64,000 nucleotides of DNA from positions 1,214 to 65,213 of the forward strand of contig PFDI01000006.1 of assembly GCA_002772695.1 (NCBI GenBank). The letters run 5' to 3'. The DNA comes from Candidatus Pacebacteria bacterium CG10_big_fil_rev_8_21_14_0_10_44_54. Lineage in GTDB: Bacteria; Patescibacteriota; Microgenomatia; UBA1400; PJMF01. This document shows, in pieces, positions 6,959 to 37,933 of this stretch (position 1 is its first letter; each line of letters begins with the position of its first letter). The notes beneath the pieces are model-generated. The model had not been told where the DNA came from. It was given only the letters and a program-made list of their open reading frames with translations, and ran no database searches. A program made the position numbers and the translations under genes.

Positions 6959-8466
6959 ATATTGGAGAAAAAATAGCACGCTACGTGACTAGACACCCGG
7001 TAAAAACACAGCGAGGACTAGAAATTTTGCCAGGATTTGTCTCGTGGTCACTTATTCTCTTTCCAGTCTGGGGGTCATTTGTCGTACCTGAGGTAGTTGC
7101 ATACTACGTTATCACGTTTAGTGTGTACTGGCTGTATCGCTCAATTACTATGGCAATTTTTTCAGTTTTGGCACACCTAAAGGTGCGAGCAGCTAGTAAG
7201 TTTGATTGGCTAGACAATCTCAAGCAACAACACCCAAAAACCTGGAGCACGATTCATCACTGCATCATTATACCCACCTATAAGGAGCCGCTTGAAACCC
7301 TGGTGCGTACCTTGGCCGCGCTACAAGCCCAAACATTTCCAAAAGAAAACCTACATATTGTTCTATCTTTTGAGGAGCGCGAAGGTGCTGCTGCAAGAAA
7401 AAAAGCCGCGGAACTTTCACAAAGATTTCACAAAACATTTGGCTCACTTCTCACCACATATCACCCCGACATTGCAGATGAAATAAAGGGCAAGTCTTCC
7501 AATACTGCTTGGGGGGCGAGGCAAGCAAAGAAATTGATCATCGATAAAAAAAAGATCTCACTAAACAATACTACAATCACAAGTGAGGACGCAGATGCTT
7601 TATTTCACCAATCATACTTCACCGCACTTACCCATGACTTCTTGACTCGAGAAGATCGCTACAACTGTATCTGGCAAGGTTCGATCGTATTTTATAACAA
7701 TATTTGGAGTGTTCCCGCTCCAATCCGCGTGCTCGCCTCACTTTTTTCTGTGATTCAAATGCATCTACTGATGCGGTCAGATCGATTGATTAATTTCTCT
7801 ACCTACTCGACTTCTTTTCGGCATATAGTTGATATCGATTTTTGGGATACCGACGTCATACCCGAAGACTATCGTCTCTTCTTTAAATCCTACTTTGCCA
7901 AGAAAGGTAAGTTTGAGGTTCACCCAATCTTTTTACCAATCTACTCTGACGCACCAGAATCACCTACACGCTGGCAAACGTACAAAAATCAGTACGAACA
8001 ACTCAAACGCTGGGCTTGGGGTGTCAGCGATGACGCCTATATTATCAAGCAGTACCTCACAACTCCAAACGTTCCATTTTGGGATAAATCTATTCGTGTT
8101 CTTAAAACAATAGAGGATCATTTTCTTTGGCCAGTCAATTGGTTTGCTATTACAGTATCCGCGTTCTTTCCCCCACTTCTTAATGAGGAGTTTAATAGAA
8201 CCGTAATTGGTAAAACACTTCCACAAGTTACCTCTGCCCTCCTGACCGCCTCACTCATCTCAATGTTCGCAGTCTTTATTATTGACGCAATAAATCGCCC
8301 ACCAAGACCCAAAAAGAGAAGATTTTTGTCAATTATCTTTCAGCCACTCGAGTTTTTGCTCTTACCCATCATTGGTTTTTTCTTTTCTGCCCTGCCTGGC
8401 ATTGATGCACACACCAGACTGATGCTTGGAAAATATTTAGAGTATAAGGTGACAGAAAAAGTTTAA
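6955..8466 (+). CDS. membrane-embedded family-2 glycosyltransferase (GT-A fold) with N- and C-terminal TM segments
   Basis: CIIIPTYKEPLETLVRTLAALQAQTFP is a GT2 nucleotide-sugar binding region. A DAD (DxD) motif is present. Flanking hydrophobic helices suggest a synthase-like membrane GT. Its ATG overlaps the tatD stop. Confidence 0.7.
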   Translation: MNIGEKIARYVTRHPVKTQRGLEILPGFVSWSLILFPVWGSFVVPEVVAYYVITFSVYWLYRSITMAIFSVLAHLKVRAASKFDWLDNLKQQHPKTWSTIHHCIIIPTYKEPLETLVRTLAALQAQTFPKENLHIVLSFEEREGAAARKKAAELSQRFHKTFGSLLTTYHPDIADEIKGKSSNTAWGARQAKKLIIDKKKISLNNTTITSEDADALFHQSYFTALTHDFLTREDRYNCIWQGSIVFYNNIWSVPAPIRVLASLFSVIQMHLLMRSDRLINFSTYSTSFRHIVDIDFWDTDVIPEDYRLFFKSYFAKKGKFEVHPIFLPIYSDAPESPTRWQTYKNQYEQLKRWAWGVSDDAYIIKQYLTTPNVPFWDKSIRVLKTIEDHFLWPVNWFAITVSAFFPPLLNEEFNRTVIGKTLPQVTSALLTASLISMFAVFIIDAINRPPRPKKRRFLSIIFQPLEFLLLPIIGFFFSALPGIDAHTRLMLGKYLEYKVTEKV

Positions 8467-10050
8467 ATGACTATACTGAGTGCACAAATGAAATTACTCT
8501 CAGAAATTCGCGAGCGCTTGCGTGAGCCAAAAAGCATCTTGTTTCTATTGCTCCTACTTCTTACCTTACTAAGAGTTCCTAATTTCTCAGAACCGTACTG
8601 GTATGGTGATGAGGGAATCTACCTTACAATTGGCAACGCCTTGCGTGAAGGTGGTACGCTCTACACCACTATTGTTGATCATAAAACGCCACTCATTTAC
8701 TACCTCGCTATGATTGTTGATAACCAACTACAGTTTCGTGTGCTGCTGTATGGCATGATGCTGCTCTCAACCGCTGCTTTCTTCTCGCTTTGTCAAACAT
8801 TGTTTTCTCGACTCAAACCTGCTGCATTTGCTACCCTACTCTTTGTTGTCTTTACTTCTCTGCCCTGGTTTGAAGGGCATATCCCCAACGGAGAACTATT
8901 TGTCATTTCATTTGTACTGTATGGAGCTTGGCTCTTTGTCAAAACACCTGTGGCACAGGCCTTCTTTTTACGAAAGACTGTCAAAACACAAAAAAACTTT
9001 CTGCTGTTTGCGGCTGGAGTCAGCTTTGGTCTTGCGCTGCTAACAAAAGTACCTGCCTTATTTGATATCATCGCCTTTGGCGCAGTTTTTGTTTTCTTGA
9101 TTTGGAGGGAGCATTTCCAACTTCTCACTACTCGACTAAAGGAAGCTTTTGTCTTTGTAGCAGGCTGCCTTATACCGCTTGTGCTCTCAATTGTATATTT
9201 TTATGCAATAGGCTCAGGCAGTGACTATCTTGATTTTGGCTTGCTCTATAACTTCAAGTATGCAGGATCATGGCAACTTGCATTTGCTAGTCCTGTTGTG
9301 CTTTTTCTCTTTAGTTTACCAGGAAAAACACTTGTTCTCGGCAGCATACTACTACTCATACTTGGTCTGAATAAAAAACTTTCAGCGGCCAGCCAGTTTT
9401 CACTCGCTTGGTTTTGGCTCTCATTATTTGCTAGCCTTCTTTCTAATCGACCATATCCGCATTATTTCTTGCAGGCAATTCCCCCCGCTGCAATTCTAGT
9501 AGTACTACTGATTATGCAAACAAGAAAAATTTCTTCAGCCTCCAATGCTATCAAGCTTACTTTGCTTGGTGGAAGCCTGAGTACGTTGCTTGCCGTGCTT
9601 GTTTTGCTGCATGTTGGACTTTATAGCACTGTCTCTTACTACACAAATTGGCTCCGTTACATGAGCAAGCAAACAAGCAGACAAGAGTACTATCAATCAT
9701 TTGACAAGCTAATGAGTGACAACTATGCGGCTGCAAAACTTATTATCACCACACAAGACAAACCAAGTCTGTTTATCTGGGGCACTAATCCCATGCTATA
9801 TGCGCTCACCAAAGCCGTGCCTCCTACTCGCTTTACAGTTTCATTTCATGTTGCTGATTTGGATGTATACAGTGAAACTATGTCCGATGTCTATTCCGCT
9901 CAGCCTGAATTCATTGTCGTAATGAACAACGAGTCGAGAAACCTACCTGGCCTCAATGCAATGCTTTTCGAAGCGTATACACTCAATGCACAGTACCAAC
10001 ACTTTACACTTTGGAAACGGTTATCGAACGCATCAAGCCTGCTATACTAG
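8467..10050 (+). CDS. GT-C family glycosyltransferase (ArnT/PMT_2-like; uses a polyprenyl-phosphate-sugar donor)
   Basis: 527 aa with more than 10 TM helices. The first-loop motif EPYWYGDEGIYLTIGNAL corresponds to the conserved DE/acidic motif of ArnT/PMT-type GT-C enzymes. Confidence 0.7.
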   Translation: MTILSAQMKLLSEIRERLREPKSILFLLLLLLTLLRVPNFSEPYWYGDEGIYLTIGNALREGGTLYTTIVDHKTPLIYYLAMIVDNQLQFRVLLYGMMLLSTAAFFSLCQTLFSRLKPAAFATLLFVVFTSLPWFEGHIPNGELFVISFVLYGAWLFVKTPVAQAFFLRKTVKTQKNFLLFAAGVSFGLALLTKVPALFDIIAFGAVFVFLIWREHFQLLTTRLKEAFVFVAGCLIPLVLSIVYFYAIGSGSDYLDFGLLYNFKYAGSWQLAFASPVVLFLFSLPGKTLVLGSILLLILGLNKKLSAASQFSLAWFWLSLFASLLSNRPYPHYFLQAIPPAAILVVLLIMQTRKISSASNAIKLTLLGGSLSTLLAVLVLLHVGLYSTVSYYTNWLRYMSKQTSRQEYYQSFDKLMSDNYAAAKLIITTQDKPSLFIWGTNPMLYALTKAVPPTRFTVSFHVADLDVYSETMSDVYSAQPEFIVVMNNESRNLPGLNAMLFEAYTLNAQYQHFTLWKRLSNASSLLY

Positions 10051-10394: not shown

Positions 10395-11456
10395 ATGCTC
10401 GCATTTTTTCTTAGTTTTTTGTTTGCTTTTCTTCTAGCACCAGTTGTAATTCGGCTCTATAAAAGACAAGGTTGGCTCGATGATCCTGCGCACAATACCC
10501 ATGTGAAAAAAACTCATACAACAGCAGTGCCACGCGGAGGTGGTTTGGTTATTTTTTTTGCCGTGCTAGCTTGTAGTCTACTTTTCTTACAGTTTGATCA
10601 ATACTTACTCGCTATCCTGACTGGAGCTCTCCTGCTCACTATAATCGGCTTCTTGGATGATATACTCGACCTTCATCCCTTTCCTCGTTTAGCGATAAAC
10701 GGCCTCGCAGCCTTAATCGTAGTTGGTTCTGGTATTGGTATAGCCTATATCAGCAATCCTTTTAGCTCTGGCGTACTCATGCTTGATCAACCGAGACTAA
10801 CGCTCTCATTCTTGGGTGAAACAAGAAGTATTTGGGTTTTGGCAGATCTCTTTGCTGTTTTTTTTATCATTTGGAATAGCAATATCGTTAATTGGTCAAA
10901 AGGTGTCGATGGACAATTGCCGGCTTTTTCAATGGTAGCACTCGTGTTTGTTGGTCTGTTGTCTCTTCGATTTTTTGATGATCCAACTTCGTTCAACACT
11001 GCCCAGCTTGCTTTCATTGTTGCCGGAGCATTTGCAGGACTACTGCCGTGGAATTGGTTTCCCCAAAAAATTATGCCGGGGTACGGTGCCGGCTCTCTAG
11101 CTGGATTTTTCTTAGGAGTACTGGCTATTCTCTCTGGAGCAAAATTAGCAACGACACTTATGGTACTTGCTATTCCAACAGCTGATGCTGTGTTTACCAT
11201 CGTTCGCAGACTACATGCAGGAAAATCACCATTCTGGGGCGACAGAGGACATCTACATCATAAATTATTTGATACCTTCGGTTGGAGCAGACAAAAAATA
11301 GCAATATTTTATGGCATCTCGAGTGTAGCGCTTGGCTTCCTCTCGCTGTATTTGAATACTGTGGGAAAATTGCTTACAATAGCAATTACCATGAGCCTCG
11401 TGTTTGGTCTCTTATCTTGGATAAAGATCAAAAAAAGTACTCAGAAAAAAATATGA
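10395..11456 (+). CDS. polyprenyl-phosphate sugar-1-phosphate transferase of the WecA/TagO/MraY (GT4-PNPT) family, WecA-like
   Basis: Motifs GWLDDPAHNTHVKKTHTTAVPRGGG (WecA-type PRxGG), IGFLDDILDL (DDxxD) and 10-11 TM helices. Confidence 0.8.
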   Translation: MLAFFLSFLFAFLLAPVVIRLYKRQGWLDDPAHNTHVKKTHTTAVPRGGGLVIFFAVLACSLLFLQFDQYLLAILTGALLLTIIGFLDDILDLHPFPRLAINGLAALIVVGSGIGIAYISNPFSSGVLMLDQPRLTLSFLGETRSIWVLADLFAVFFIIWNSNIVNWSKGVDGQLPAFSMVALVFVGLLSLRFFDDPTSFNTAQLAFIVAGAFAGLLPWNWFPQKIMPGYGAGSLAGFFLGVLAILSGAKLATTLMVLAIPTADAVFTIVRRLHAGKSPFWGDRGHLHHKLFDTFGWSRQKIAIFYGISSVALGFLSLYLNTVGKLLTIAITMSLVFGLLSWIKIKKSTQKKI

Positions 11457-12421
11457 CTGCGTCGCTCCCCAAAACTCTTTTTCTGTTGTTAAAAACAGCC
11501 CGTCCTCGACAATGGGTAAAAAATCTCTCGTTATTCGCAGCTTTACTCTTTTCTGGTTTCTTGTTTTATAACCCTGTAGATGCTTTGCCGTACTTTTGGA
11601 CTGTAGCTCTGGCAACACTCACTTTTACGTTGGTTACTTCTGCTATTTACATAGCCAATGACCTCGTTGACAAAAAAGCTGATGCCCAACATCCATTTAA
11701 GCGAAAACGACCCATAGCGTCGGGAGAGCTTTCAACCGAAGTGGCAAAACTGGCTGTCTTCTCTTTACTTATTCTGGCGGGGTTTTTTTCACTTTATTTT
11801 TCACTTTTTTTCAAACTGCTGGTACTGCTGTATATTCTGCTACAAATTGGATACTCAAAAATATTTAAACATGTTCCAATTCTTGATGTTGCTTCAATTG
11901 CACTTGGGTTTCTAATTCGAATTTATGCGGGCTCTGTCGTGGTCAACCTACACATGAGTGTTTGGTTTTTGCTCACAGTTATCTCTGCTTCACTCTTTCT
12001 TGCGGTAGGGAAAAGACAAAGTGAGAGAACCCTACTAATGGGAAATTCTTCTGAATCAATTGGAAGTACTAGAAAAATCCTCAAACGATATAGCGAGCGC
12101 TTGCTGGATCAATACACTGCAATGTTTGCCACAGCAACTTGGCTGACATACGCTATCTTTACTTTTCAAAATGAAGTCATTGTTCCACAATCTGAATTTG
12201 CAACAATCTTTCGGCTGTTACCAAAAACACTTCACACCCAAAAATGGCTTATGATCTCTGTACCCTTTGTCATCTTTGGTGTCATGAGGTATTTGCAGCT
12301 TGTGTATGAAAAAAACCAAGGAGAATCTCCAGAGCGAGTGCTCTTTAATGACAAGCCCCTACTCATCACCGTTTTTCTTTTTGGCCTCAGCGTTATTTTT
12401 GCCTTGTACTTACTTGCATAA
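11453..12421 (+). CDS. UbiA-family prenyl-phosphate phosphoribosyltransferase (decaprenyl-phosphate 5-phosphoribosyltransferase/DPPR synthase-like)
   Basis: Start chosen at MTASLPK (ATGA overlap with the upstream stop at 11454-11456). The TARPRQWVKNL motif is the DPPR-synthase (Rv3806c-like) hallmark. YIANDLVDKKADAQHPFKRKRPIASG is the UbiA Asp-rich region. About 8 TM helices. Confidence 0.7.
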   Translation: MTASLPKTLFLLLKTARPRQWVKNLSLFAALLFSGFLFYNPVDALPYFWTVALATLTFTLVTSAIYIANDLVDKKADAQHPFKRKRPIASGELSTEVAKLAVFSLLILAGFFSLYFSLFFKLLVLLYILLQIGYSKIFKHVPILDVASIALGFLIRIYAGSVVVNLHMSVWFLLTVISASLFLAVGKRQSERTLLMGNSSESIGSTRKILKRYSERLLDQYTAMFATATWLTYAIFTFQNEVIVPQSEFATIFRLLPKTLHTQKWLMISVPFVIFGVMRYLQLVYEKNQGESPERVLFNDKPLLITVFLFGLSVIFALYLLA

Positions 12422-12424
12422 TTT

Positions 12425-13675
12425 ATGCAGCGATTTGTAGAGCGCTACTACAATCCCTTGTTGCTCGTACTCGTAGCAATCGCATTTTTCTCTCGCCTCT
12501 ATCGAATTCACATTCCAGAGCGGTATATGTTTGATGAGGTATATCACGCTGTGACAGCTCAACTCATTGCAAAAAATGATCCAAGAGCTTATGAATGGAC
12601 TGCCCAGTCTGATCAACCAAATACTGCAATTGATTGGCTGCATCCACCGGGCGCTAAATTATTTCAGGCTGGAAGCGTGTTGTTATTTGGCGAAACTAGT
12701 TTCGCTTGGCGAATTAGTTCTGTTGTATTTGGAACGCTCGTGGTTCTTACAGTGGGTTGGTTAACCCAAGCTTTGTTCGCAAATAAAGCACTCTCGCTGT
12801 TCGCCACACTCTTTGCAGTTTGTGACGGTTTACTACTTGTACAATCTCGTATCGCGATGAACGACATTCATGTCACGTTTTTTATATTGCAAACACTGCT
12901 ATGGTATTGGCTCTACCGAGAAAAAAAAGTTGTAAAGTATTTTATAGTCGCAATTGTAATGGCTGGTTGTGCTGTAGCAAGCAAGTGGTCGGGATTATTT
13001 GTATTTGGAGTGATCACAATTGTAGAACTTGCTCAGTGGCAGAAAGATCAAACTATACATCTGCTACAAAAAATTTCTCTATTACTACTACTTCCATTAG
13101 GAATATATCTGGCAAGCTACTCGCAAATGTGGCTACAGGGAAAATCACTTACCCACTTTATTCAACTTCACAAACAAATTTGGGCCTACCAAACAACTTT
13201 GACTGCGACTCACCCATACCAATCTACTCCTCTCCAGTGGTTCTTGAATATCAGACCTGTTTGGGTTTCTGTTGAGTACGGCAGCGAAACTAGGGCAGAC
13301 ATTTATGCTTTTGGTAATCCAGCATTATTTTTTTGGGGCATGTTTGCCATACTGTTTAGTGCTGTTTCAGTAGTACAGCTTCGAAAAAAAATCTCACCAG
13401 CGTTTATATTTTTATTCTTAGCTTATATTATAGTCTGGACCCCCTGGTTTCTCTCTCCTCGCGTTATGTTCTTTTATCACTACACACCAGCCGTCCCTTT
13501 ACTCTGCATCTTACTCGCCTACTGGCTGGTGAAAATAAACAAAAAATCTCTCACGATAACAATTTCCATCAGCATCATTCTTGCCAGTATTGTTTGGTTT
13601 CCTCATTGGACACAACTGCCTGTTTCAAACAAATTTGCTGATGATATTTACTTTTATTTTACAACGTGGAAATAA
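12425..13675 (+). CDS. GT-C family glycosyltransferase (PMT/GT39-like dolichyl/polyprenyl-phosphate-sugar:protein or glycan transferase)
   Basis: 416 aa, multi-TM. The first-loop MFDEVYHA motif (DE) matches the PMT family. Confidence 0.7.
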   Translation: MQRFVERYYNPLLLVLVAIAFFSRLYRIHIPERYMFDEVYHAVTAQLIAKNDPRAYEWTAQSDQPNTAIDWLHPPGAKLFQAGSVLLFGETSFAWRISSVVFGTLVVLTVGWLTQALFANKALSLFATLFAVCDGLLLVQSRIAMNDIHVTFFILQTLLWYWLYREKKVVKYFIVAIVMAGCAVASKWSGLFVFGVITIVELAQWQKDQTIHLLQKISLLLLLPLGIYLASYSQMWLQGKSLTHFIQLHKQIWAYQTTLTATHPYQSTPLQWFLNIRPVWVSVEYGSETRADIYAFGNPALFFWGMFAILFSAVSVVQLRKKISPAFIFLFLAYIIVWTPWFLSPRVMFFYHYTPAVPLLCILLAYWLVKINKKSLTITISISIILASIVWFPHWTQLPVSNKFADDIYFYFTTWK

Positions 13676-20379: not shown

Positions 20380-20618
20380 TTCTGAGGTTACGGGCAATCC
20401 AATCGTTTTCAGCTCGTTTCTAGCGTACTGTTTGACCATGAGTTAGTTGGATGTATAGATCTAGCATTTCATGAAATCAGCAAAAAACTTGCAGTAGTTG
20501 CAGACAATTGGGCCTCTGCAGCAAAATTGTTGAACCAAGTTATGGAAGACAGAAAAGTCTAATTCTACAGTGTAAATCAAAACTTTGAACGTATCTAAAA
20601 CCTAATTGCCTGCTAGTG

Positions 20619-20692
20619 TCGGGGTGACTGGACTCGAACCAGCGATCTCGCGACCCCCAGCCGCGCATTCTAGCCATCTGAACTACACCCCG
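20619..20692 (-). tRNA. tRNA-Pro (anticodon GGG)
   Basis: The reverse complement CGGGGTGTAGTTCAGATGGCTAGAATGCGCGGCTGGGGGTCGCGAGATCGCTGGTTCGAGTCCAGTCACCCCGA folds as a cloverleaf: a 7-bp acceptor stem (CGGGGTG/CACCCCG), an anticodon stem CGCGG/TCGCG with loop CTGGGGG (GGG anticodon after U33), and a T-arm GCTGG-TTCGAGT-CCAGT. CCA is not encoded. Confidence 0.8.
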
Positions 20693-20809
20693 TTTTGTTT
20701 CGTAACAGAATCCTACACTTTACGTAACACTTGGAATGTACTATACATCCTAGTACAAAGTTTTTATAGTAAAAAACCCAAAAATACATCTACCAAGCAA
20801 AGGAAAACT

Positions 20810-21856
20810 ATGCCAAAACCAACGGTAAAAAAAACATCCGACACCCCAAAACTAACCGATGAGCAATCTGCAAAACGCCAGGCAGTTTCTATCGCCATGC
20901 AGCAGATCGAAAAGGAATTTGGCAAAGGCTCAATTATGAAGATGGGCGACTCGCTCAAACACATGGCTACCATTCCTGTTGTATCTTCTGGATCACTTGC
21001 GCTCAACCTTGCGCTTGGTGTTGGCGGCTACCCCAAAGGCAGAGTGGTAGAAATTTATGGACCAGAGGCATCAGGCAAAACTACGCTCTGTTTACACGCC
21101 ATTGCAGCGGTACAGAAACAAGGGGGTACGGCTGCATTTGTCGATGTAGAACACGCATTAGACCCTCTTCGAGCCAAGCGTATCGGCGTCAACCTAGAAG
21201 ACCTACTAATTTCACAGCCAGATTATGGTGAGCAGGCACTCGAAATTGCCGAAACTCTCATCCGCTCTGGTGGTGTCGACATTGTTATTGTCGACTCTGT
21301 TGCAGCTTTAGTGCCAAAATCAGAAATTGAGGGTGAGATGGGAGATGCCCAAATGGGCGTGCAAGCGAGACTGATGTCTCAAGCAATGCGAAAATTGACT
21401 GCGGCCATCAGTCGCACTAACACGCTCGTTATGTTTACCAACCAAATTCGCATGAAGATCGGCGTCATGTTTGGCAGCCCCGAGACAACAACTGGTGGAA
21501 ATGCACTCAAGTTCTATGCTTCACAACGTCTTGATATTCGCAAAATTGGCAATATTCAAGAAGGTGAAAAGGTTGTCGGTAGTCGTCACCGCGTGCGAGT
21601 CAAGAAAAATAAAGTTGCCCCCCCATTTCAAGTGGCCGAATTTGACATGGACGAAAACGGGATCTCAATGACCGGTGACACAGTAGATATCGGCGCTATG
21701 GAGAACGTTATCGAGAAAAGCGGCAGCTTCTACAAGTATGAAGGTGAAGTGCTCGCGCAAGGACGTGAAGCAACCAAAACTTACCTGGCAGAACACCCAG
21801 ATTTACTCAAGAAAATTCAAAAAGAAATCTGGCAAAAAATCAAGCAGTCCGATTGA
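20810..21856 (+). CDS. recA: recombinase RecA
   Basis: Start set at MPKPTVKK, preceded by AAGGAAA. The longer ORF from 20606 runs antisense through the tRNA. Walker [10 protein letters not shown], and the L1/L2 loops and FDMDENGIS region typical of RecA. Confidence 0.95.
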
Positions 21857-25257: not shown

Positions 25258-27507
25258 TCACAAACGCCTTCGCCATTTGCGAACTAGCTCAAATACGCGC
25301 ACTACCCAAAACCGTGGCGAGAGCGGAATATCCTGTGCTTCAAGGTATTGCACCTCTCTCCCACCAAAACCACGCTTAAATAATGATACTCCTGCAAATC
25401 GATGTCCTTTCACACCAGGTGGAGCAACGCCCCAAAGGTTATAACTTTGACAACCGTGTTGTTTTGCTTCGATGATGACGCGCCACTGAACTGCATAGGA
25501 ACCTGGTAATTTAGTGTTAGCGTCAGTTGAAACACCATAGTGATAGACTGCTTGCTGGTGATACATCAGTACAAATGCAGAGGCAAGTAGTTGCTCACCT
25601 TGATAAGCAGAGACTAAAATTGCCTGATTATTTTCTGCAAATATGCGAAATTGTTCAACTAAAAAATCATAGCTAAATGGCACAAAATCGTGTCTGGCTG
25701 CCACCAACCGCTGTTCCTCATAAAACTGTTTGATTGCGCTCGGATCACGAGAAACAGTGGTTCTAATTCCCAATTTTTCTGCTTTTTTGATTGCCGAACG
25801 GGTGTTCTTGCGCATTTGTGCCAAGATTTGCTCATTATCTTTGGCAAGATCGATCTCTATGGTTCTATCTGCCGTCACATGCATAGCAGCAGGTACTGCG
25901 CCTAGTTGAGCTGCTTGGGCTCGAGCACCAGGGTTCTCGAGCACCTGCGGTCTAAATCTAAGAAAAGAACAGCCGTGCTGTTTTGCAATTGTCCGCAAAT
26001 GAGAAAAAAAAGCCGAAGCAACCAATATGCGATCCCAATCTAACAATGGTCCGCCCGGTAAGCTGCAGTAAGTACCGCGTCGCGCTCGCTCAAAAATCAT
26101 AAGTGCTACACCAATCAAATTACTTTTCTCATACAAGCCAATTCGAGCAATCTCTTTGCCAAGTTTTCGCTGAAACTCTCCCCAGTGCCAGGATTGCAGG
26201 AAATTCGCCTCTACTCGATTTGCCAACCAATCTTCCCAAATTTCTTTTTTGGTTATTTCTCTCACGACGTAGTCCTGTTGTATATCCAATTGCCCCAAGA
26301 TCACAGTCGCCAAACGAGCCGCAACTTGTGGTGTAATCTGGCGATGTGTGGGAAGTGTAAAGACAGTACTAGCAAGTGCCTCAGCTGCCAAACAACTCCC
26401 TACTTGATACGTTGTATTCCACTTGGTGCTGCCTGCATCTACAGCAGACCGATACCAGCGATCAGATAAGTAGAAATTATGTTTTTTTAACTCTGCTGTC
26501 AAAGTGGCTGGATCTCTAGCTATGATGGCAAAGCGCAGCGGCGAAAGCTTGTCTGTTGTTGCTGGCGAGACGGCGTACTGAAAAAGAAAACGCTCATAAA
26601 TGGCCGCAATTTTTGCCCGATGCTCTAAAGCCTGTGACAATGAATGCAACTGCTCAAAGACCAATCGAGCCTGTCCCACAGAAAGCTTCTCAAAAAGTGG
26701 TGTGGTGCGAAGCACTGGAGAGGTAATGATGCCAAAAGATACAGCGACTCGCTGCAATACTTTGCCCAAACCAAGTGAGAATGTAGCTCGTATTATCACT
26801 GTCAAAAGCGGATAGAATGCCTGGCGCCAGTCACTACGTGAGCGCAGTAAGTGCCGACTGGGCTCTTCTACGAGTAGGTTTTTGCGAAATAAACAGCAGC
26901 CACCTGCAACGACATCAATCACTTTATCTCTACCAAACGAAGTGACAACAATATCTCCAAAACTACCCAGTAATTTTTTATCCGATGTATGACTGCCAAA
27001 AGATTGAGCTAGGTCCTCTATGAGCAATAAGTTATTTTTGTTACACCAATCACGGATTGCGACAATAGCTGCCGGATAACCAAGTAGGTGTTGGACTAAA
27101 ACTACTCTTGCATCTGGATTGGCAGCAAATGCTTTCTGCAGGGTTTCGACATTCAAATTGATTGAGTGTTCAGCGAGATCGACAAAAACCGGTTGTAGTT
27201 TTGCCCCCAAAATTGCCTCCTCTATCGCAGCACATGTAAAGGCTTGTGTCAGCACTTTTGCATTCTGTGGCAGTGACAAAGCTTGGAGTGAAAACTGAAT
27301 TGCATCGCGACCAGTGGAAAAAAAGTATGGATCAGTAAACTCAGGAAAGTACTCAAGCAATTTAGCACTCAAGTCTGTTTGTGTTTGCCTCAAATTTGGA
27401 GGAAATATATACCACCACAATGCCTGACAGGCAAATTTCAGCGAGTAATTTGACCCAAGGCTACCAAAAATAGGAACAGTCTGATTCATAAATGCTCTGT
27501 TAGCCAT
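25258..27507 (-). CDS. bifunctional fusion of an N-terminal DegT/DnrJ/EryC1/StrS-family PLP sugar aminotransferase and a C-terminal FemAB-family (FemX-like, GNAT-fold) aminoacyl-tRNA-dependent transferase
   Basis: The N-terminal half has the DegT pattern (VLTQAFTCAAIEEAILGAKLQPVFVD...LLLIEDLAQSFGS...GSFGDIVVTSFGRDKVID with a putative PLP-binding Lys). The C-terminal ~335 aa starts with FLQSWHWGEFQRKLG and continues with YHYGVS...NLWGV, which is FemAB/FemX-like. It is one uninterrupted 749-aa ORF. Confidence 0.75.
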   Translation of the reverse strand: MANRAFMNQTVPIFGSLGSNYSLKFACQALWWYIFPPNLRQTQTDLSAKLLEYFPEFTDPYFFSTGRDAIQFSLQALSLPQNAKVLTQAFTCAAIEEAILGAKLQPVFVDLAEHSINLNVETLQKAFAANPDARVVLVQHLLGYPAAIVAIRDWCNKNNLLLIEDLAQSFGSHTSDKKLLGSFGDIVVTSFGRDKVIDVVAGGCCLFRKNLLVEEPSRHLLRSRSDWRQAFYPLLTVIIRATFSLGLGKVLQRVAVSFGIITSPVLRTTPLFEKLSVGQARLVFEQLHSLSQALEHRAKIAAIYERFLFQYAVSPATTDKLSPLRFAIIARDPATLTAELKKHNFYLSDRWYRSAVDAGSTKWNTTYQVGSCLAAEALASTVFTLPTHRQITPQVAARLATVILGQLDIQQDYVVREITKKEIWEDWLANRVEANFLQSWHWGEFQRKLGKEIARIGLYEKSNLIGVALMIFERARRGTYCSLPGGPLLDWDRILVASAFFSHLRTIAKQHGCSFLRFRPQVLENPGARAQAAQLGAVPAAMHVTADRTIEIDLAKDNEQILAQMRKNTRSAIKKAEKLGIRTTVSRDPSAIKQFYEEQRLVAARHDFVPFSYDFLVEQFRIFAENNQAILVSAYQGEQLLASAFVLMYHQQAVYHYGVSTDANTKLPGSYAVQWRVIIEAKQHGCQSYNLWGVAPPGVKGHRFAGVSLFKRGFGGREVQYLEAQDIPLSPRFWVVRVFELVRKWRRRL

Positions 27508-28961
27508 TGCGGCATTCTGCCTTCTAGCAATAACACTGTGTTTTTATCAAGTAACTGTATTTTTTTGCGCACATCGGCTTGCGTAGAAACTAGCTTGTCA
27601 GAAAACACTTGCTGAAACACTGTCTTGCCTGCTTCTCCAAGATACCAAACTTCGCCCACAACCACTGCAGCTTGCTGCGCTAGTTGAGAGTGAATTGCGA
27701 CAGACTCTCTGCCGAGATCAACAATGCCTGTTGTGATTAATATTTTGCGTGACTCAGATTGTTGTGCTAATAACCGCAAAGCGGCCGAGAATCCATCGGG
27801 ATTGCTGGTACCAAAATCATCTAGTATTGTCGCTCCAGACTTCGCAGTTTTGCGCTGGATCCATTTGTCACCAGGGACAAATGATTCTAGTCTAGCCACA
27901 ATTTGTTTGTCTGAAAGTTTCAAGTATTGTGCTGCTGCTATTACAGCCTTAATACTGTCTTGGTAGTGATCACCGACTATCTTAGATTGCAGCTTAGGGG
28001 ATGAATTTCGCCATGTCTCGACTATCTCAAGCGCACAGATGTTCTTGGCTGCAGCGACAATTTGCATTGCAGACTGATTGGCACAAAACACAGCAGCACC
28101 TTGTGGCAATGACGCAAGCAGTTCTGCCTTGGCTTCGGCTATAAGCTGCTTCGAACCAAATAATTCAAGATGTTGTTTGCCAAGCCCGGTGAGAATGGCC
28201 ATGTCTGGAGGAGCTACTGAAGCTAATCGAGCAATTTCACCTACTCTGTATGCGGCATACTCTAGCACAAGAATTTTTGAGCAACCCAAGTGCTTGTATA
28301 CATATCGCGCTACTCCCAAAGCAGTGTTGATCGATCCCGGAGTGGTGCAAACCTTGCCCCGCTGTTGCAGTACGTGACTCAACAGCTGTTTAGTTGTCGT
28401 CTTGCCATAACTACCAGTTATTCCAATGATGAATGGTTGTTGCTTTTTTATACGCTGGCGCACCAGAAACAAATAGTAGGTCGTCACAAGTGATACCAGT
28501 CCTCCTGTCAAGGCTGTGAATAATAACAACACTACAGGCGCAAAAATATATACACCGATTGCAAGTACAATCAGGCGAATTGTTGCAATAGCTGGTACGG
28601 CTACAACCCAATAAGCTAGTGAAAAAACAAGTAGAAAAAGCACGACAACACTACCCAAAAGCAGTATTCCCACACGCAGTGTTCTTTTCGGTCGTTTAAA
28701 TGTTTTCAAACGAAAAATTGTCAGCGATGGCAACACGTGTAGTAATATTTGGCGACCTGTTAGGGAGCGTATATGGGCTACTAATCTATCAAGTCGATAC
28801 TCTTTTTGCTGCAACAAGCCACTCCACCAGATCAAGCCAGCAAACGTATCAAGTAGACACCCAAGCAGAAAAAGAACAATAATAAAATTACCCATTGTGT
28901 GCCTCAATAATGTACCTCCCAACTTGTTTTGGATGCGTAAACGGCACGCCGTGTCGAGCAT
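27486..28961 (-). CDS. Mur-ligase-family protein, MurF-like (central and C-terminal domains), with an N-terminal polytopic membrane domain replacing the usual UDP-MurNAc-peptide-binding domain
   Basis: The first ~170 aa form 4-5 hydrophobic helices. They are followed by Mur ligase P-loop IIGITGSYGKTTTKQLL, AILTGLGKQHLELFGS and the C-terminal ATILDDFGTSNPDGFSAAL (MurF-like DDSYNANP motif). The 3' end overlaps the fusion gene by 22 nt. Confidence 0.75.
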   Translation of the reverse strand: MLDTACRLRIQNKLGGTLLRHTMGNFIIVLFLLGCLLDTFAGLIWWSGLLQQKEYRLDRLVAHIRSLTGRQILLHVLPSLTIFRLKTFKRPKRTLRVGILLLGSVVVLFLLVFSLAYWVVAVPAIATIRLIVLAIGVYIFAPVVLLLFTALTGGLVSLVTTYYLFLVRQRIKKQQPFIIGITGSYGKTTTKQLLSHVLQQRGKVCTTPGSINTALGVARYVYKHLGCSKILVLEYAAYRVGEIARLASVAPPDMAILTGLGKQHLELFGSKQLIAEAKAELLASLPQGAAVFCANQSAMQIVAAAKNICALEIVETWRNSSPKLQSKIVGDHYQDSIKAVIAAAQYLKLSDKQIVARLESFVPGDKWIQRKTAKSGATILDDFGTSNPDGFSAALRLLAQQSESRKILITTGIVDLGRESVAIHSQLAQQAAVVVGEVWYLGEAGKTVFQQVFSDKLVSTQADVRKKIQLLDKNTVLLLEGRMPQWLTEHL

Positions 28962-29634
28962 TGGGAATCAGTCGCAATCTTGCGGTTGGAATGCCTTGTT
29001 GTAAACGAGCGACAAACTCTAGAGGTGTAGTCTCGTCATTTGCTCCCCAAATAATAGTTGTGTCAGCAGTAATACTGGGCAAAAGCACGTCTACCTCATG
29101 CTCTAACACGCGCCGCATTGACTCTCTCATAATTGGATTGGCCTTGAGATAGTCTTGCTCTCCTGCCAATCGATAAATAACTCGACGAAGCAGATTGGAA
29201 GTAGTGAGTTTTTTGCCAAATTTTGCCAGGTAGTAAAAAAAATTTCGCTTAAGCCAAGATGTCAGGCTCTGTGAGCGCATACCAGCACTCGCAATAAGTA
29301 CTAACTTTTCTACCTGACTTGGGAAACGGGCGGCGTATGTAACTGCCAAATGCCCTCCAAACGAGTGACCAACCAACGTTATTTTTTTCTTTCCAACAAA
29401 TTGTCTTGCCAGCCATGCAACATATTCATCTACTCCCCAGGATTCAGTGAGCGGAAACTCAAATCCGGGCAGTCTGAGAACACTCCCTTTGATACCTACA
29501 TTTTGTAGCTGTTGTTTGATTGGCTGCCACTTTGCGCTTGGACTCGAATCTCTTGACCAACCGTGAAGAATGATGACCTCCGATGTTGTGTTCTCCATAA
29601 GCTCATTATACGCACCTCTGGCGAAAAAACGCAC
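28888..29634 (-). CDS. alpha/beta-fold hydrolase
   Basis: HGWSRDSS (HG oxyanion), nucleophile elbow LVGHSFGG, and a C-terminal His (NARHGVPFTHP). Its 3' end overlaps the MurF-like gene. Confidence 0.75.
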   Translation of the reverse strand: MRFFARGAYNELMENTTSEVIILHGWSRDSSPSAKWQPIKQQLQNVGIKGSVLRLPGFEFPLTESWGVDEYVAWLARQFVGKKKITLVGHSFGGHLAVTYAARFPSQVEKLVLIASAGMRSQSLTSWLKRNFFYYLAKFGKKLTTSNLLRRVIYRLAGEQDYLKANPIMRESMRRVLEHEVDVLLPSITADTTIIWGANDETTPLEFVARLQQGIPTARLRLIPNARHGVPFTHPKQVGRYIIEAHNG

Positions 29635-33698: not shown

Positions 33699-34640
33699 GT
33701 GTTGCCTATGATTCGCTTTCAAGACGTCTCCAAAGAATTTTCTGCTAATAATTTTGCAATCAAAGAAGTTTCGTTTTCAGTTGAGCCAGGTGAATTTGTA
33801 TATATTACTGGTGCATCTGGTAGCGGCAAGACCACGCTCATGCGCCTCATCATTCGTGAATATACTCCTACCTCAGGCCAAATTTCGCTCTTTGGCGATG
33901 CATTGACGTCAATTTCTTCAAAAAAAATTACTGATCTGCGGCGCAAAATTGGTGTTGTTTTTCAAGACTACAAATTGTTACCTGAACTCAATGTCTGGGA
34001 AAATATTGCACTGCCACTAGAGATAGTAAATCAACCACAAGCAGAAATTGAAAATCGCGTAACCGACTTACTTAAGTTGATTGACCTACTCGATAAACCA
34101 TACCTTTTTCCAAGCCAGCTATCGGGTGGCGAAGCACAGCGAGTTGGCATTGCTCGGGCACTAGCGCTTGGACCTGACCTCATTTTTGCTGACGAACCAA
34201 CAGGAAATCTCGATGTCAATAATGCTCGATCCATAGTAGAGCTACTGCAAAAGATCAACAAGTTGGGCACGACTATTCTTTTTGCCACACATAACCTCGA
34301 TCTTACCAAGAATGATTCTGCCCGCATTCTGAAACTAGCCAATGGCAATTTGGTTAACGATTCAAAACCACCGGTCAAAAAAGAAGCTCCCAAACCAAAT
34401 GAGCTTGTAAAGGCTTCAGAGCCCCCAAAAAAGAAAGAGGTCGAAAAGCAAAAACTAGAAAAAAAACCAAGTCTGCTCTCTCGTTTTTTTTCCAAGGAGA
34501 AAAAGAAAAAAGAAGTGGAACATCCCAAAGAAAAAATTGAAACTCCCAAGATAACTTCAAAAGAAAAAAAGATTGGAACAAATCAAAAGAAAAAAACAAA
34601 AAAAGAACGAGTGATAGTATCAGAGGAAAATCTGGAGTAA
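33699..34640 (+). CDS. ftsE: cell-division ABC ATPase FtsE with a ~90-aa Lys/Glu-rich C-terminal extension
   Basis: MIRFQDVSKEF...GASGSGKTTL (Walker A), LSGGEAQRV signature, Walker B IFADEPTGNLD. The tail is KKEAPKPNELVKASEPPKKKEVEKQKLEKK... Confidence 0.9.
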   Translation: MLPMIRFQDVSKEFSANNFAIKEVSFSVEPGEFVYITGASGSGKTTLMRLIIREYTPTSGQISLFGDALTSISSKKITDLRRKIGVVFQDYKLLPELNVWENIALPLEIVNQPQAEIENRVTDLLKLIDLLDKPYLFPSQLSGGEAQRVGIARALALGPDLIFADEPTGNLDVNNARSIVELLQKINKLGTTILFATHNLDLTKNDSARILKLANGNLVNDSKPPVKKEAPKPNELVKASEPPKKKEVEKQKLEKKPSLLSRFFSKEKKKKEVEHPKEKIETPKITSKEKKIGTNQKKKTKKERVIVSEENLE

Positions 34641-34642
34641 GC

Positions 34643-35515
34643 ATGCAACCATTTACTTATGCTCTCACCACCATGCGCCGAACTCCCTATCAGTCACTCG
34701 CCGCGCTCTTGATGGTGTCAGTAACATTTTTTGTGGCATATCGTCTCTCATTTATCCTCTCAGGTGCTCACCTGGTGCTATCTCATTTTGAGACATCACC
34801 ACAAGTAATTGCCTTTTTCAAACTTGATACTGACAAACCAGCAATGGAATCCCTCGCAGCGTCTCTATCCAAGACTACTTCGGTCAGTGAGGTGCGACTT
34901 ATAACCCAAGATCAGGCACTCAAAGACTATGCCAAAGAGTACGATGACTCGCCACTATTACTTGAACTCGTAACTGCAGATATTTTGCCTGCTAGTATCG
35001 AGGTTTCAGCAACTAGTGTCGATACGTTGACAACTGTAGCCGAAAATCTTAGAAAAGAACAAATTATTGATGATGTCGTGTTTCAACAGGATATTGTCGA
35101 ACAGCTCAGCAGCTGGACTCAAGCATTACGAATAGCCGGCTTGGTTGACGTTGGCATTTTAAGCATCGCTTCATTTCTTACTATTAGCATCATTATCACA
35201 CTCAAGGCTGCAAATAAAAAATACTCAGTCACAATCATGCGACTGATTGGTGCCTCAAACTGGTACATCAACAAACCATTTATTGTCGAAGGCATACTCT
35301 ACGGTGTACTGGGAGCACTGCTCGGGTGGATAGCCATCACTGCTATTCTCCTGTATCTTACCCCCACACTTTCCTCTTTTTTCTCTGGTATTTTAGAGTT
35401 TCCTGTTCCACTCGAGTTCTTACTGATGCAACTGGGTGTTGGACTTTTGGTTGGAGCAATACTTGGTGGTCTCGCAAGCTTCTTGGCTACCAATCGCTTT
35501 GCCCAACGTGCCTAG
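34643..35515 (+). CDS. ftsX: cell-division permease-like protein FtsX
   Basis: It lies immediately downstream of ftsE. One N-terminal TM, a periplasmic domain, and three C-terminal TM helices (FtsX topology). Confidence 0.85.
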   Translation: MQPFTYALTTMRRTPYQSLAALLMVSVTFFVAYRLSFILSGAHLVLSHFETSPQVIAFFKLDTDKPAMESLAASLSKTTSVSEVRLITQDQALKDYAKEYDDSPLLLELVTADILPASIEVSATSVDTLTTVAENLRKEQIIDDVVFQQDIVEQLSSWTQALRIAGLVDVGILSIASFLTISIIITLKAANKKYSVTIMRLIGASNWYINKPFIVEGILYGVLGALLGWIAITAILLYLTPTLSSFFSGILEFPVPLEFLLMQLGVGLLVGAILGGLASFLATNRFAQRA

Positions 35516-35525
35516 TCACTCTGTT

Positions 35526-36701
35526 ATGAAATTGCTTATTACATTCTTGTTTCTTTGGTTTGGTTTTGCTCCGCATCCAGTGCATGCGCTTGAGTGTGAA
35601 ATTGTCTGTAACGATACTACTGATGTAGATTGTCTCAAAGACAAGCAAGCTTGTCTCGAATCAAAACTTGATGAAACGAAAGAACAACGAATTACACTTA
35701 CTAATACTGTTAGTATCATTAACGGAAAAATCCAAATCCAGGAAGTCTTGATTCAACAAACAGAAGCAGAGATTGCCTTACTTGAAAAACAAATTGTCGA
35801 TTTGAGCCAAAGAATTGGTGGCCTCAATCTCTCGCTTGATCGACTTACCACGCTCTTGGTAGAGCGTATCCAGACAGAATACAAGCAATCTCGTGTCAAT
35901 AAAAATCTTTTTGTCCTAAATAAAAAATCTGCTACTTCGTTTTTTTCTCAACTGAGATACCTCAAGGAGGCTCGGCTACAAACCGCGCTCGCCATGCAAC
36001 GAGCAGAAGCCCAGCGCCTTGCATTTGATCAGCAGAAAATAACCAAGGAAGAAAAACAGCAGGAGGTTGAAAAAGTTCAGTCTCGACTCGAGCGAGAACA
36101 ATCTGTTTTGGCAAAGCAACGAAGCGAGCAACAATACCTACTCAGCGAAACAAAAAGTAATGAAGCTGCCTATCAAGCAGCTCTTGCCAAAACACTCGCT
36201 GAACTCTCAGCCATTCAATCAATTATTGCGGGCAAAGGCGTAGAATCACAAGTAGGTCCAGTAAATACGGGAGACACAATTGCCAGCATCATACTCGGTT
36301 CGAGTGTTTGTTCTACTGGCTCACATCTGCATTTTGAGGTGGCCAAAAACGGAGTGACACAGGATCCCGCAGCATATCTAAAATCAATTTCTCCTATCTG
36401 GAATAATCAGCCAGATAGCCCATTTGGTTTTGGTGGTAGTTGGGATTGGCCCATGTTTGATGCTGCAAGAATCAATCAAGGTTTCGGCATGACCTACTAT
36501 GCTCGAGTACATCGCGCCTATGGCGGCGAACCACATACCGGTATTGATATGTCGAGCATATCAAACGACGCTCGAGTTCGCGCTGTACAACCCGGCACCC
36601 TCTATCGCGGGAGCATTGCTTGCGGTGGTGGCAACTTGCGCTACGTGCGTGTTGAGCAAAGCGATAATATCAGCACCTATTACCTGCACGTAAATTACTA
36701 A
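35526..36701 (+). CDS. coiled-coil M23 (LytM-domain) peptidase, EnvC/PcsB-like FtsEX partner
   Basis: Start set at MKLLITFLFLWFG (signal peptide). The long coiled coil is followed by an M23 domain with HxxxD (HTGIDM) and a terminal H-x-H (YYLHVNY). Confidence 0.8.
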   Translation: MKLLITFLFLWFGFAPHPVHALECEIVCNDTTDVDCLKDKQACLESKLDETKEQRITLTNTVSIINGKIQIQEVLIQQTEAEIALLEKQIVDLSQRIGGLNLSLDRLTTLLVERIQTEYKQSRVNKNLFVLNKKSATSFFSQLRYLKEARLQTALAMQRAEAQRLAFDQQKITKEEKQQEVEKVQSRLEREQSVLAKQRSEQQYLLSETKSNEAAYQAALAKTLAELSAIQSIIAGKGVESQVGPVNTGDTIASIILGSSVCSTGSHLHFEVAKNGVTQDPAAYLKSISPIWNNQPDSPFGFGGSWDWPMFDAARINQGFGMTYYARVHRAYGGEPHTGIDMSSISNDARVRAVQPGTLYRGSIACGGGNLRYVRVEQSDNISTYYLHVNY

Positions 36702-36745: not shown

Positions 36746-37933
36746 GTGAGAATCACTTTGTGCACACTGCTCATCGCGTTTACCTTGCGGTTTGGACTAG
36801 ATACAGCGCATGCCCAAAACATTGTTGTTTCCGAACTTTACCCAGCTCCCAATGCAGGTGAAAATGAGTGGATAGAACTCTACAATGCAGCGTCAAGCGC
36901 TGCAGATCTAACCGATTGGACTGTGTTTGACACACTCAGTACTCCCAGCTTGCTGCACCAATTTACAGATTTTATTTTGCAGCCATACGAAATTTTTATT
37001 CTCAATTTATCAGGCAGCACGCTCAATAACACTGGTGACACTGTTGTCCTAAGTGATCCGGCTGCTACCTATTCAGCTTCACTCTCTTACTCGAGTAGCA
37101 CCAAAGGTCTTTCGTGGCACCAAGATTTGCTGACAGGAGAAGTGTTCGAGTCATCACCTAGCGCAGGTATTGTCGCTACTGCAAGTGCAGTGCAACCTAG
37201 TCCAATACCCATCGCTACTCAAGCAGCTGTCTCGGCCACTCCTGCTGCTGTAGTAATAAAACCAAACGTGCAACTTTCTGAAATCATGGCATGTCCTTAC
37301 TCTGGACAACCAGAGTGGATAGAGCTGCGCAACTTCGGTGAAACTATTTCGCTTGAAAACTGGCTAATTACAGATAGCACCGGAAACACTCGGGAACTCG
37401 CTGGTTTGATAGCAAATGACAGCCGAGTGGTTTTTTCTTGGAGCAACAGTATGCTTAATAACTCAGGAGACTCGCTCCTCATCACGACCAATCTTGGCAC
37501 CGTAGTTGCTGAAGCAAGCTACTCATATTGCAAAAGTGGCTACAGCCTAACTCTGAACAACGACAACTGGGTGCCTTCGCATCCGACGCCAAACGAGGCA
37601 AATAAGCTGTTTGAAGAAAGTGATGGGGAAGATGTAATGGAGGTGAACAAAATTGAAGCCACAAGTGTGCAGTCTACTGCCGCTTCTGCAGATCAAGTCA
37701 AAGATTCTGGACAAGTCCTTGGCACTACAATAACTGCACAGCCAGCCTATCCGTATTCACTAGCAAAAGAAATTATCACAATACAAGCATTGGTGCAGCA
37801 AGATAAACTGACAAAAAATACGACACAGAAATCGCTACCAGCCAAATCAAATGAAACATCACTCGGTGGTATACTAGGAGGCCTGCTTGTAACAATAAGT
37901 AGTCTCTATGCCCGCAAAGATCTCTTCACCTAG
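36746..37933 (+). CDS. secreted, C-terminally membrane-anchored protein with two lamin-tail (LTD) domains
   Basis: Signal peptide. Two repeats, VVSELYPAPNAGENEWIELYN... and QLSEIMACPYSGQPEWIELRN..., match the LTD pattern. Ser/Thr-rich linkers and a C-terminal TM helix are present. Confidence 0.6.
   Translation: MRITLCTLLIAFTLRFGLDTAHAQNIVVSELYPAPNAGENEWIELYNAASSAADLTDWTVFDTLSTPSLLHQFTDFILQPYEIFILNLSGSTLNNTGDTVVLSDPAATYSASLSYSSSTKGLSWHQDLLTGEVFESSPSAGIVATASAVQPSPIPIATQAAVSATPAAVVIKPNVQLSEIMACPYSGQPEWIELRNFGETISLENWLITDSTGNTRELAGLIANDSRVVFSWSNSMLNNSGDSLLITTNLGTVVAEASYSYCKSGYSLTLNNDNWVPSHPTPNEANKLFEESDGEDVMEVNKIEATSVQSTAASADQVKDSGQVLGTTITAQPAYPYSLAKEIITIQALVQQDKLTKNTTQKSLPAKSNETSLGGILGGLLVTISSLYARKDLFT

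Follow-up and report, generated by a model that had tools for sequence, protein, structure and literature searches.

The operon at positions 25258-29634 (minus strand) of the window, by which we mean the whole 64,000-nucleotide stretch analysed from contig PFDI01000006.1 of Candidatus Pacebacteria bacterium CG10_big_fil_rev_8_21_14_0_10_44_54, encodes a serine hydrolase, a membrane-anchored MurF-type ligase, and a single polypeptide in which a DegT-like pyridoxal phosphate (PLP) domain is fused to a FemAB domain (DegT::FemAB). Taken as a whole, this operon is probably the Candidate Phyla Radiation (CPR) version of a widespread and apparently undescribed module that completes the stem peptide of peptidoglycan (a MurF-step module); for the ligase alone, judged from its sequence, predicted structure and gene context, a role as the enzyme of the MurF step is highly likely. 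MurF is regarded as a soluble, three-domain and universally conserved enzyme, and is an antibiotic target. A membrane-anchored MurF variant with a dedicated hydrolase appears to be undescribed, and a literature search for membrane-anchored MurF, or for CPR MurF or FemAB, found nothing relevant; the DegT-like and FemAB partners, which are specific to CPR, make up a further sub-variant together with their fusions.

The ligase gene (27486-28895, minus strand; 469 aa) encodes a Mur_ligase_M domain (88.9 bits) and a Mur_ligase_C domain (29.3 bits), both above the Pfam cut-offs, and the N-terminal Mur domain is absent. Its best NCBIfam match is the murF model TIGR01143 (173.3 bits), with an alignment that begins at model position 68; the homologue from Poribacteria (locus L029) scores 249.6 bits on the same model. 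MurF enzymes are also the top matches in a phmmer search of the PDB, led by MurF of T. maritima (2e-29), and they fill all of the first ten Foldseek ranks for the AlphaFold model of the ligase (pLDDT 87.4, pTM 0.83). The P-loop (GITGSYGKT) is invariant, and both H242 and K256 are retained. Other candidate families for the ligase, namely CapB/PgsB, MurT, cyanophycin synthetase and FPGS, were rejected, as all of them score far below MurF (for MurT, a weak match of 5e-05).

The soluble UDP-MurNAc-binding N-domain of MurF is missing from this protein: the profile alignment starts beyond it, and residues ~1-152 (28440-28895, minus strand) consist instead of hydrophobic helices. By hydropathy, the longest (491-aa) open reading frame (ORF) has hydrophobic stretches at residues ~24-47 and 92-162, and in the AlphaFold model long helices (2-30, 73-99 and 101-152) precede the P-loop strand; these three long hydrophobic helices bear out the proposal, made in an earlier reading of the sequence alone (hereafter the sequence-only reading), that a membrane domain has been swapped for the MurF N-domain. 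The membrane module carries two charged motifs that are invariant across the 16-24 sequences compared (~30-58% identity), namely QQKEYRLDR (residues 29-37; family form QQKEYRxDR), directly after the first helix, and RPxxT (residues 68-72), before the second. The segment that carries both motifs is placed on the cytoplasmic face, and no Pfam family matches the membrane region of the ligase. Given these invariant motifs, the membrane domain is more than an anchor.

The soluble part of the ligase, searched against 1.84 billion representatives (clustered at 50% identity), matches 635 representative clusters at E<=1e-30. The best 150 matches are all of the membrane type, including the short ones, in that the long N-terminal extension or its motif is present, and no canonical CPR MurF was found among these 150. 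In a scan of one genome per species, the family is present in many CPR classes, Chloroflexota, Poribacteria and Omnitrophota, and also in Alphaproteobacteria, Bdellovibrionota, Clostridia and cultured Pseudalkalibacillus (Bacillaceae); the hydrolase-ligase pair spans more than eight phyla. Outside CPR, the membrane motifs have homologous forms, Qx(E/D/N)xY..R[YF] and KKxLVxTxR. Public annotations name these ligases 'Mur ligase family protein', 'hypothetical protein', or plain MurF. CPR-type modules are also carried by TPA metagenome-assembled records labelled 'uncultured Pseudomonadales' or 'Gammaproteobacteria' (L011, L012, L014-L018, L020, L037, L057, and others), one of which (OZ246405.1) is a 1.23 Mb chromosome; the taxonomic labels of these records are probably wrong. 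Other complete genomes with the module include JGI 3300065475 Ga0606646_0000001, CP066689.1, NZ_CP174509.1 and, from Poribacteria, OZ241980.1, and Saccharibacteria, of which there are cultivated members, have modules of the DegT type (L022, L069, L071).

Neighbourhoods were counted over 84 loci of the membrane-type ligase. The hydrolase gene adjoins the ligase gene in 81 of them; Ddl lies immediately downstream of the ligase in 39, DegT-like genes (with FemAB) are near it in 35, and no locus has Ddl together with DegT/FemAB. The order hydrolase-ligase-DegT-FemAB is kept in more than 30 CPR loci, so that the conserved synteny of the trio anticipated by the sequence-only reading is borne out, and one locus (L005) has the rearranged order ligase-hydrolase-fusion-extra FemAB in an unrelated neighbourhood. 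A column-by-column comparison separates the ligases of Ddl-type and DegT-type modules into distinct subfamilies with different invariant motifs: QxExY..R[YF] and ENDLPD in the Ddl-type ligases, and the type-II motifs QQKEYRLDR and EGRMP in the window ligase. The window module is not of the Ddl type, as it has DegT::FemAB where the Ddl-type module has Ddl. The MurF motif DDxYNANP does not segregate between the two ligase types.

The function of the module is indicated by loci in which it lies within the division/cell-wall (dcw) cluster. In Poribacteria (L029), the pair occupies the murF slot, between murE and ddl/mraY, in the order FtsI-MurE-ABH-TMLIG-Ddl-x-MurD-..-MurC (ABH, hydrolase; TMLIG, ligase), and this dcw cluster contains no canonical murF. 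In a CPR locus (L037), the four-gene unit is situated between murI and mraY (FtsI-MurA-MurE-MurC-MurB-MurD-MurI-ABH-TMLIG-DegT-FemAB-MraY-FtsW-MurG-x-FtsA-FtsZ), in a cluster that has every other precursor enzyme and neither Ddl nor Alr (alanine racemase). Another CPR locus (L087) encodes all four ligase steps within ~10 kb. Of 19 further Mur-ligase genes tested in the neighbourhood of such loci, every one is MurC, MurD or MurE, and none is a canonical MurF. The dcw murF slot, the identity of these neighbours, and the ten MurF structural neighbours together mean that the ligase is best read as performing the MurF step. As far as the local context shows, the ligase is the only MurF, a finding that the sequence-only reading had itself set against its proposal of a separate pathway.

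The association with Ddl is broad, and not universal. All four of the CPR Ddl genes that were looked up individually adjoin a membrane-type ligase, as do most of the 80 metagenomic Ddl loci; the Ddl genes of L118, L158 and L162 are away from any such ligase. A Fem gene accompanies the Ddl-type module in L129 (4-5653) and L130. These two loci have the order SerRS-FemAB-ABH-TMLIG-Ddl-FtsQ-like, with the gene for seryl-tRNA synthetase (SerRS) directly upstream of FemAB, a position that hints at Ser-tRNA as the Fem donor in this lineage. In Pseudalkalibacillus sp. A8 (L072, NZ_CP174509.1, 9238-16826), the hydrolase, the membrane-anchored MurF, a Ddl-family ligase, a VanX-type D-Ala-D-Ala dipeptidase and a penicillin-binding protein (PBP) are encoded in a row (as also at L064 and L075), and the row may be a van-like alternative precursor cluster.

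The hydrolase (28888-29598, minus strand; Abhydrolase_1/6) most likely starts at M13 of a 248-aa ORF that reaches 29634. Its catalytic triad (Ser79/Asp188/His216) and HGW oxyanion motif are kept in all 81 sequences compared; no signal peptide was identified, and the enzyme is taken to be cytoplasmic. The nearest solved structure is a metagenomic carboxylesterase (5jd6), with no closer one. Judged from this conservation and from its position beside the ligase, the hydrolase is apparently an obligate partner of the membrane-anchored ligase, although its reaction is predicted by no known peptidoglycan step.

The window (G+C ~43%) is a typical CPR genome segment. The three minus-strand ORFs of the sequence-only reading were confirmed at 28888-29634, 27486-28961 and 25258-27507, and the overlapping gene ends support the operon structure and translational coupling that it proposed. 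The overlaps themselves are real, but the extents that it gave (27486-27507, and 28888 to ~28961) are too large, because the longest ORFs overshoot the likely starts. The ligase most likely starts at M23 of the 491-aa ORF, since a database protein of 469 aa (P0121, Candidatus Pacebacteria bacterium) is 100% identical from there; an exact-sequence look-up of the 491-aa ORF found no match because the database protein begins at M23. Similarly, the fusion protein most likely starts at M7 of its longest ORF, exactly matching the 743-aa database protein P0001. With these starts, the hydrolase and ligase genes overlap by 8 nt (ATGGGTAA, 28888-28895), and the ligase and fusion genes by ATGA (27486-27489); the three genes are therefore tightly coupled. 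An alternative start for the ligase is a TTG at 28907, with GGGAGG 7 nt upstream. Promoter- and terminator-like matches in the region are no commoner than in shuffled sequence. In the window itself, the operon is outside any dcw cluster, and no other Mur genes were found in the 64 kb; the layout is, as had been proposed, not the usual murC-F/femX arrangement.

The fusion gene encodes a DegT/DnrJ/EryC1-like PLP domain (residues 1 to ~413; 26251-27489, minus strand) followed by a FemAB domain (residues ~414-743 and the stop codon; 25258-26250, minus strand). Since the DegT::FemAB fusion recurs in ~16 protein clusters (31-100% identity) from independent assemblies, it is not a sequencing artefact, and the earlier proposal of one polypeptide holds. 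Splitting of the ORF in related genomes, which the sequence-only reading had named as evidence against the fusion, is indeed seen: in most CPR genomes the DegT-like and FemAB genes are separate and adjacent. The window fusion is nonetheless no error; given the prevalence of two genes, it is real but derived and lineage-specific, the split form being ancestral. A ligase::DegT fusion (P0344, 876 aa), independent of DegT::FemAB, was recovered in two sequencing runs (L092 969-3599, L093 494-3124), with the hydrolase before it and FemAB after it. The AlphaFold model of the window fusion (pLDDT 88.7, pTM 0.77) has halves that superpose on FemX (TM-score 0.83) and on aminotransferases of the PglE/ArnB type. 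In the lineage of P0010 (L003 7792-8001, L004 7334-7543), a 69-aa ORF is present between the ligase and fusion genes, and the fusion protein has a low-complexity insertion of ~40 residues.

The FemAB domain matches its Pfam family at 126.2 bits (cut-off 24). Against the PDB, its profile matches FmhB (7e-30) and FemX (3e-21) in nearly end-to-end alignments, and Sbb17 at 3e-11. The Foldseek superposition of this half is with FemX of Weissella viridescens (FemX(Wv)), and a further one is with Sbb17 (TM-score 0.80), in keeping with a double-GNAT fold. F704-K705, in the motif FK.GFGG, is invariant in 13 fusions and in nine stand-alone or fused FemAB sequences; the FemAB motifs FLQS, KxTR and NxWG are also invariant. 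K705 is the equivalent of K305 of FemX(Wv), which has a catalytic role (PMC12945691). In vancomycin-resistance (van) clusters, murF and fem-family genes co-cluster as consecutive steps (PMC4229326, PMC4790382). The full-length similarity to FmhB and FemX, the occurrence of Fem beside a Ddl-type module, and the co-clustering in van clusters make FemX-like addition of a branch the simplest reading for this domain.

The DegT-like domain matches DegT_DnrJ_EryC1 at 113.5 bits (cut-off 19.8), and its profile matches sugar aminotransferases in the PDB (E=4e-51). The PLP lysine (K189, in SFGRDK) is invariant and aligns to K184 of PglE; E158-D159 and G60-R61 are also invariant, D159 being the Asp bound to the nitrogen of the pyridine ring. 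Compared with DegT enzymes of known structure, this half has a family-specific insertion of ~55 residues. Neither the window nor the fully annotated L037 encodes, beside the DegT-like gene, a dehydratase or dehydrogenase that would form a keto-sugar, and the precomputed annotations of L001-L008 contain no dehydratase or dehydrogenase Pfam families. The coupling of the DegT-like domain to both neighbours (fused to FemAB here, and to the ligase elsewhere) suggests that its substrate is the precursor shared with them, or else the unit added by the ligase.

From the gene content, conservation, dcw position, catalytic residues and fusions, all observed directly, the following substrates, order of steps, and roles may be proposed. 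The ligase retains two MurF domains, the central one that binds ATP and the C-terminal one, with a three-helix membrane domain replacing the soluble UDP-binding N-domain. It would use ATP to activate the C-terminal carboxylate of the MurNAc-tripeptide and, on the inner side of the membrane and beside MraY, would join to it the terminal unit, either D-Ala-D-Ala or something equivalent; the precursor could be UDP-linked or already lipid-linked. The hydrolase would work with the ligase as its obligate partner, and could edit or hydrolyse wrong products, carry out an acyl-transfer step, or stand in for the lost N-domain. In a subsequent FemX-like step, FemAB would most likely take an amino acid from aminoacyl-tRNA and attach it to the completed precursor, at the side-chain amine of position 3. 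The DegT-like domain would have as its substrate either this precursor or the unit contributed by the ligase.

Several points weigh against the module completing the stem peptide in this manner. The score of the ligase on TIGR01143 is below the curated murF cut-off of 288.6 bits, and, as the survey for murF, ddl and alr covers the 64-kb window and local loci, a canonical murF, ddl or alr may lie elsewhere in the genome. The window's lineage has a degenerate form (DDFGTSNP) of the MurF motif DDxYNANP, and the incoming substrate may therefore differ from D-Ala-D-Ala. K36 and R211 of FemX(Wv), which we take to be its contacts with the UDP-pyrophosphate, align to Q and F in the window domain (at ~20% identity, at which single columns are unreliable). 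We know of no peptidoglycan precursor step that needs a DegT-type aminotransferase or a serine hydrolase. In addition, Pseudalkalibacillus probably also has a normal murF, and its module may be an accessory, van-like copy, so the family is not always the sole MurF.

Three other explanations were weighed against a MurF-step module. The alternation of DegT and Ddl at the same position, together with the lack of Ddl and Alr in L037, raises the possibility that DegT-like and FemAB supply the incoming unit of the ligase, and thereby take over from alanine racemase and Ddl. In this scheme an amino-acid unit would be made or epimerised by the PLP enzyme, FemAB would link a residue from aminoacyl-tRNA with a free amino acid into a dipeptide, and the type-II ligase would attach this dipeptide unit to the tripeptide, giving a tRNA-dependent route to the terminal dipeptide. 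Consistent with this are the downstream position shared by Ddl and DegT without overlap (39 versus 35 loci, overlap 0), the lack of DegT in all 80 of the Ddl loci, and the otherwise complete L037 cluster, which has MurI and has DegT and FemAB in the place of Ddl and Alr. The division of the ligases of the two module types into subfamilies with different invariant motifs points the same way, as do the Rosetta-stone fusions ligase::DegT and DegT::FemAB, and, among the best 120 of 5363 CPR Ddl matches, none is on a contig known for the DegT-type module (a weak negative). There is also a biochemical precedent in the FemAB-like DhpH-C, which joins a residue from Leu-tRNA and a free alanine analogue into a dipeptide (PMC12945691). 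However, a Fem gene coexists with Ddl in L129/L130, and the Ddl genes of L118, L158 and L162 are not linked to the membrane-type ligase, so that Ddl could be located elsewhere in genomes with DegT-type modules. Moreover, the stereochemistry is awkward, since the residues brought in by tRNA are L-amino acids, while D-Ala-D-Ala is required by DD-transpeptidases, and PBPs of the FtsI type are present; the differences between the ligase subfamilies map poorly onto the incoming-substrate motif; and we know of no racemase in the DegT family. We consider the replacement of Alr and Ddl unlikely. Its extension to a full CPR rewiring, in which Ddl and Alr are lacking, the PLP enzyme and tRNA-dependent FemAB make the terminal unit, and a MurF without an N-domain attaches it at the membrane, possibly to a lipid-linked tripeptide and with a dedicated serine hydrolase, is quite unlikely.

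The sequence-only reading had favoured a separate pathway in which an amino sugar is made and then aminoacylated. In such an envelope pathway, apart from peptidoglycan, the product of DegT would be a nucleotide amino sugar; FemAB would add an amino acid to the amine of this sugar, and the ligase would couple or extend the result on a lipid-linked glycan. Membership of the DegT family with an intact PLP site, the loss of the UDP-binding N-domain from the ligase, and the structural resemblance of the FemAB half to Sbb17 (TM-score 0.80) fit this scheme, and FemAB-like acylation of an amino sugar has a precedent in Orf11/Sbb17, which act on streptothrisamine (PMC12945691). In two loci with the split four-gene module, a gene for a ROK-family kinase precedes the module, directly upstream of the hydrolase gene (a ROK-family sugar kinase; L006, 3984-4844; L007, 3910-4734). 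The FemAB profile, however, is nearer to FmhB/FemX than to Sbb17 (7e-30 versus 3e-11), and no sugar dehydratase, dehydrogenase, glycosyltransferase or flippase is conserved beside the module. In relatives the module occupies the dcw murF slot with no other murF nearby, and the same hydrolase-ligase pair is elsewhere coupled to Ddl, VanX and PBP. The amino-sugar proposal was thus not borne out, in view of the dcw murF slot, the pairing with Ddl and the lack of a keto-sugar enzyme nearby, and we judge an envelope pathway of this kind to be very improbable. Most improbable of all is an accessory van-like module that modifies the terminus or branch of the stem peptide beside a normal MurF and Ddl, conferring, for example, intrinsic resistance to cell-wall antibiotics or lytic enzymes. 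The Pseudalkalibacillus version, with its VanX-type dipeptidase and PBP, does resemble van clusters with murF and vanK (PMC4229326, PMC4790382), and the incoming-substrate motif is degenerate in the window's lineage. Against this, the modules of Poribacteria and CPR lie within the dcw cluster, where no second murF is seen. CPR genomes, at ~1 Mb, also seldom keep redundant pathways. We therefore retain the MurF-step module as the preferred reading of the operon.

The module belongs to a large family in which the UDP-binding domain of MurF is swapped for a conserved membrane domain, a catalytically intact serine hydrolase almost always precedes the ligase, and the ligase appears to be the sole MurF-like gene of the dcw cluster in several lineages. 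If this reading is true, the final cytoplasmic step of peptidoglycan-precursor synthesis would be membrane-bound in many bacteria, and would need a second enzyme that is absent from textbook pathways; the step would also be directly testable, since cultured Pseudalkalibacillus carries the module. CPR cell walls are essentially uncharacterised, and from the presence of DegT-like and FemAB partners one would predict that the stem peptide or the cross-bridge of these bacteria is unusual. Automated pathway reconstructions that call such genes plain murF, or hypothetical, would miss the variant.

Elsewhere in the window, a cluster at 10395-13675 (plus strand) encodes a GT4 (WecA/MraY-like) phosphosugar transferase, a UbiA-family prenyltransferase and a PMT-family glycosyltransferase, which suggests a polyprenyl-phosphate-linked glycan pathway apart from the murF module. 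An FtsE-like ABC ATPase, FtsX and a protein with an M23 peptidase domain are encoded in a row at 33699-36701 (plus strand), as in the usual module for division-associated control of cell-wall hydrolases. A 395-aa protein with two Lamin Tail Domain repeats is encoded at 36746-37933 (plus strand). The longest recA ORF (20606-21856, with a TTG start at 20606) overlaps an opposite-strand tRNA-Pro(GGG) gene (20618-20692); the RecA domain match begins only at residue 93, and the true start of recA is therefore probably well downstream. At E<=1e-5, Pfam gives no match for three large ORFs, of 417 aa (589-1842, minus strand), 503 aa (6955-8466, plus strand) and 527 aa (8467-10050, plus strand).

Certain features of the operon can be found in known systems. 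DhpH, which acts in dehydrophos biosynthesis, has a PLP-dependent N-terminal domain fused to a FemAB-like domain. The two-domain logic of the window fusion is like that of DhpH, whose FemAB-like domain acylates a small amine with aminoacyl-tRNA (PMC12945691); however, DhpH belongs to Streptomyces secondary metabolism, without a Mur ligase or a dcw link, and the two are likened by description and not by sequence. The window domain shares with the DegT sugar aminotransferases (such as PglE, ArnB and QdtB) the fold, the lysine for PLP and the Asp for the pyridine nitrogen. It differs from them in having GRDA, where theirs is usually SGT(D/A)AL, in its insertion, and in its setting, which is a precursor operon without a keto-sugar-making partner, where it is fused to FemAB or to the ligase.

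Both MurT/GatD and the murF2/vanK pair of van clusters, like the window module, combine a Mur-ligase-fold enzyme or an extra MurF with a partner enzyme that works on late precursors, and MurT acts on lipid II at the membrane (PMC3266927). MurT itself is without a membrane domain, and its sequence match to the window ligase is weak; the MurF proteins of van clusters are described as plain MurF or D-Ala-D-Ala-adding enzymes, with no membrane-anchored form mentioned (PMC4229326, PMC4790382). In having a murF-like ligase gene as its neighbour, the window FemAB gene resembles vanK and staO (PMC4229326, PMC4790382). With FemX and FmhB, the window domain has in common the double-GNAT fold, the Lys of FK.GFGG and the full-length profile; unlike them, it is fused to a PLP enzyme, and the residues aligned to the UDP-pyrophosphate contacts are not conserved. 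The closest comparison is with MurF. The window ligase departs from MurF in that a membrane domain of ~150 residues, with invariant motifs of its own, is present and the soluble UDP-binding N-domain is not, in its pairing with a serine hydrolase, in its score below the curated cut-off, and in the degenerate DDxYNANP of its lineage; it nevertheless shares with MurF the ATP-binding P-loop domain, the C-terminal domain, and the best sequence and structure matches, and its relatives occupy the MurF slot of the dcw cluster, coupled to Ddl.

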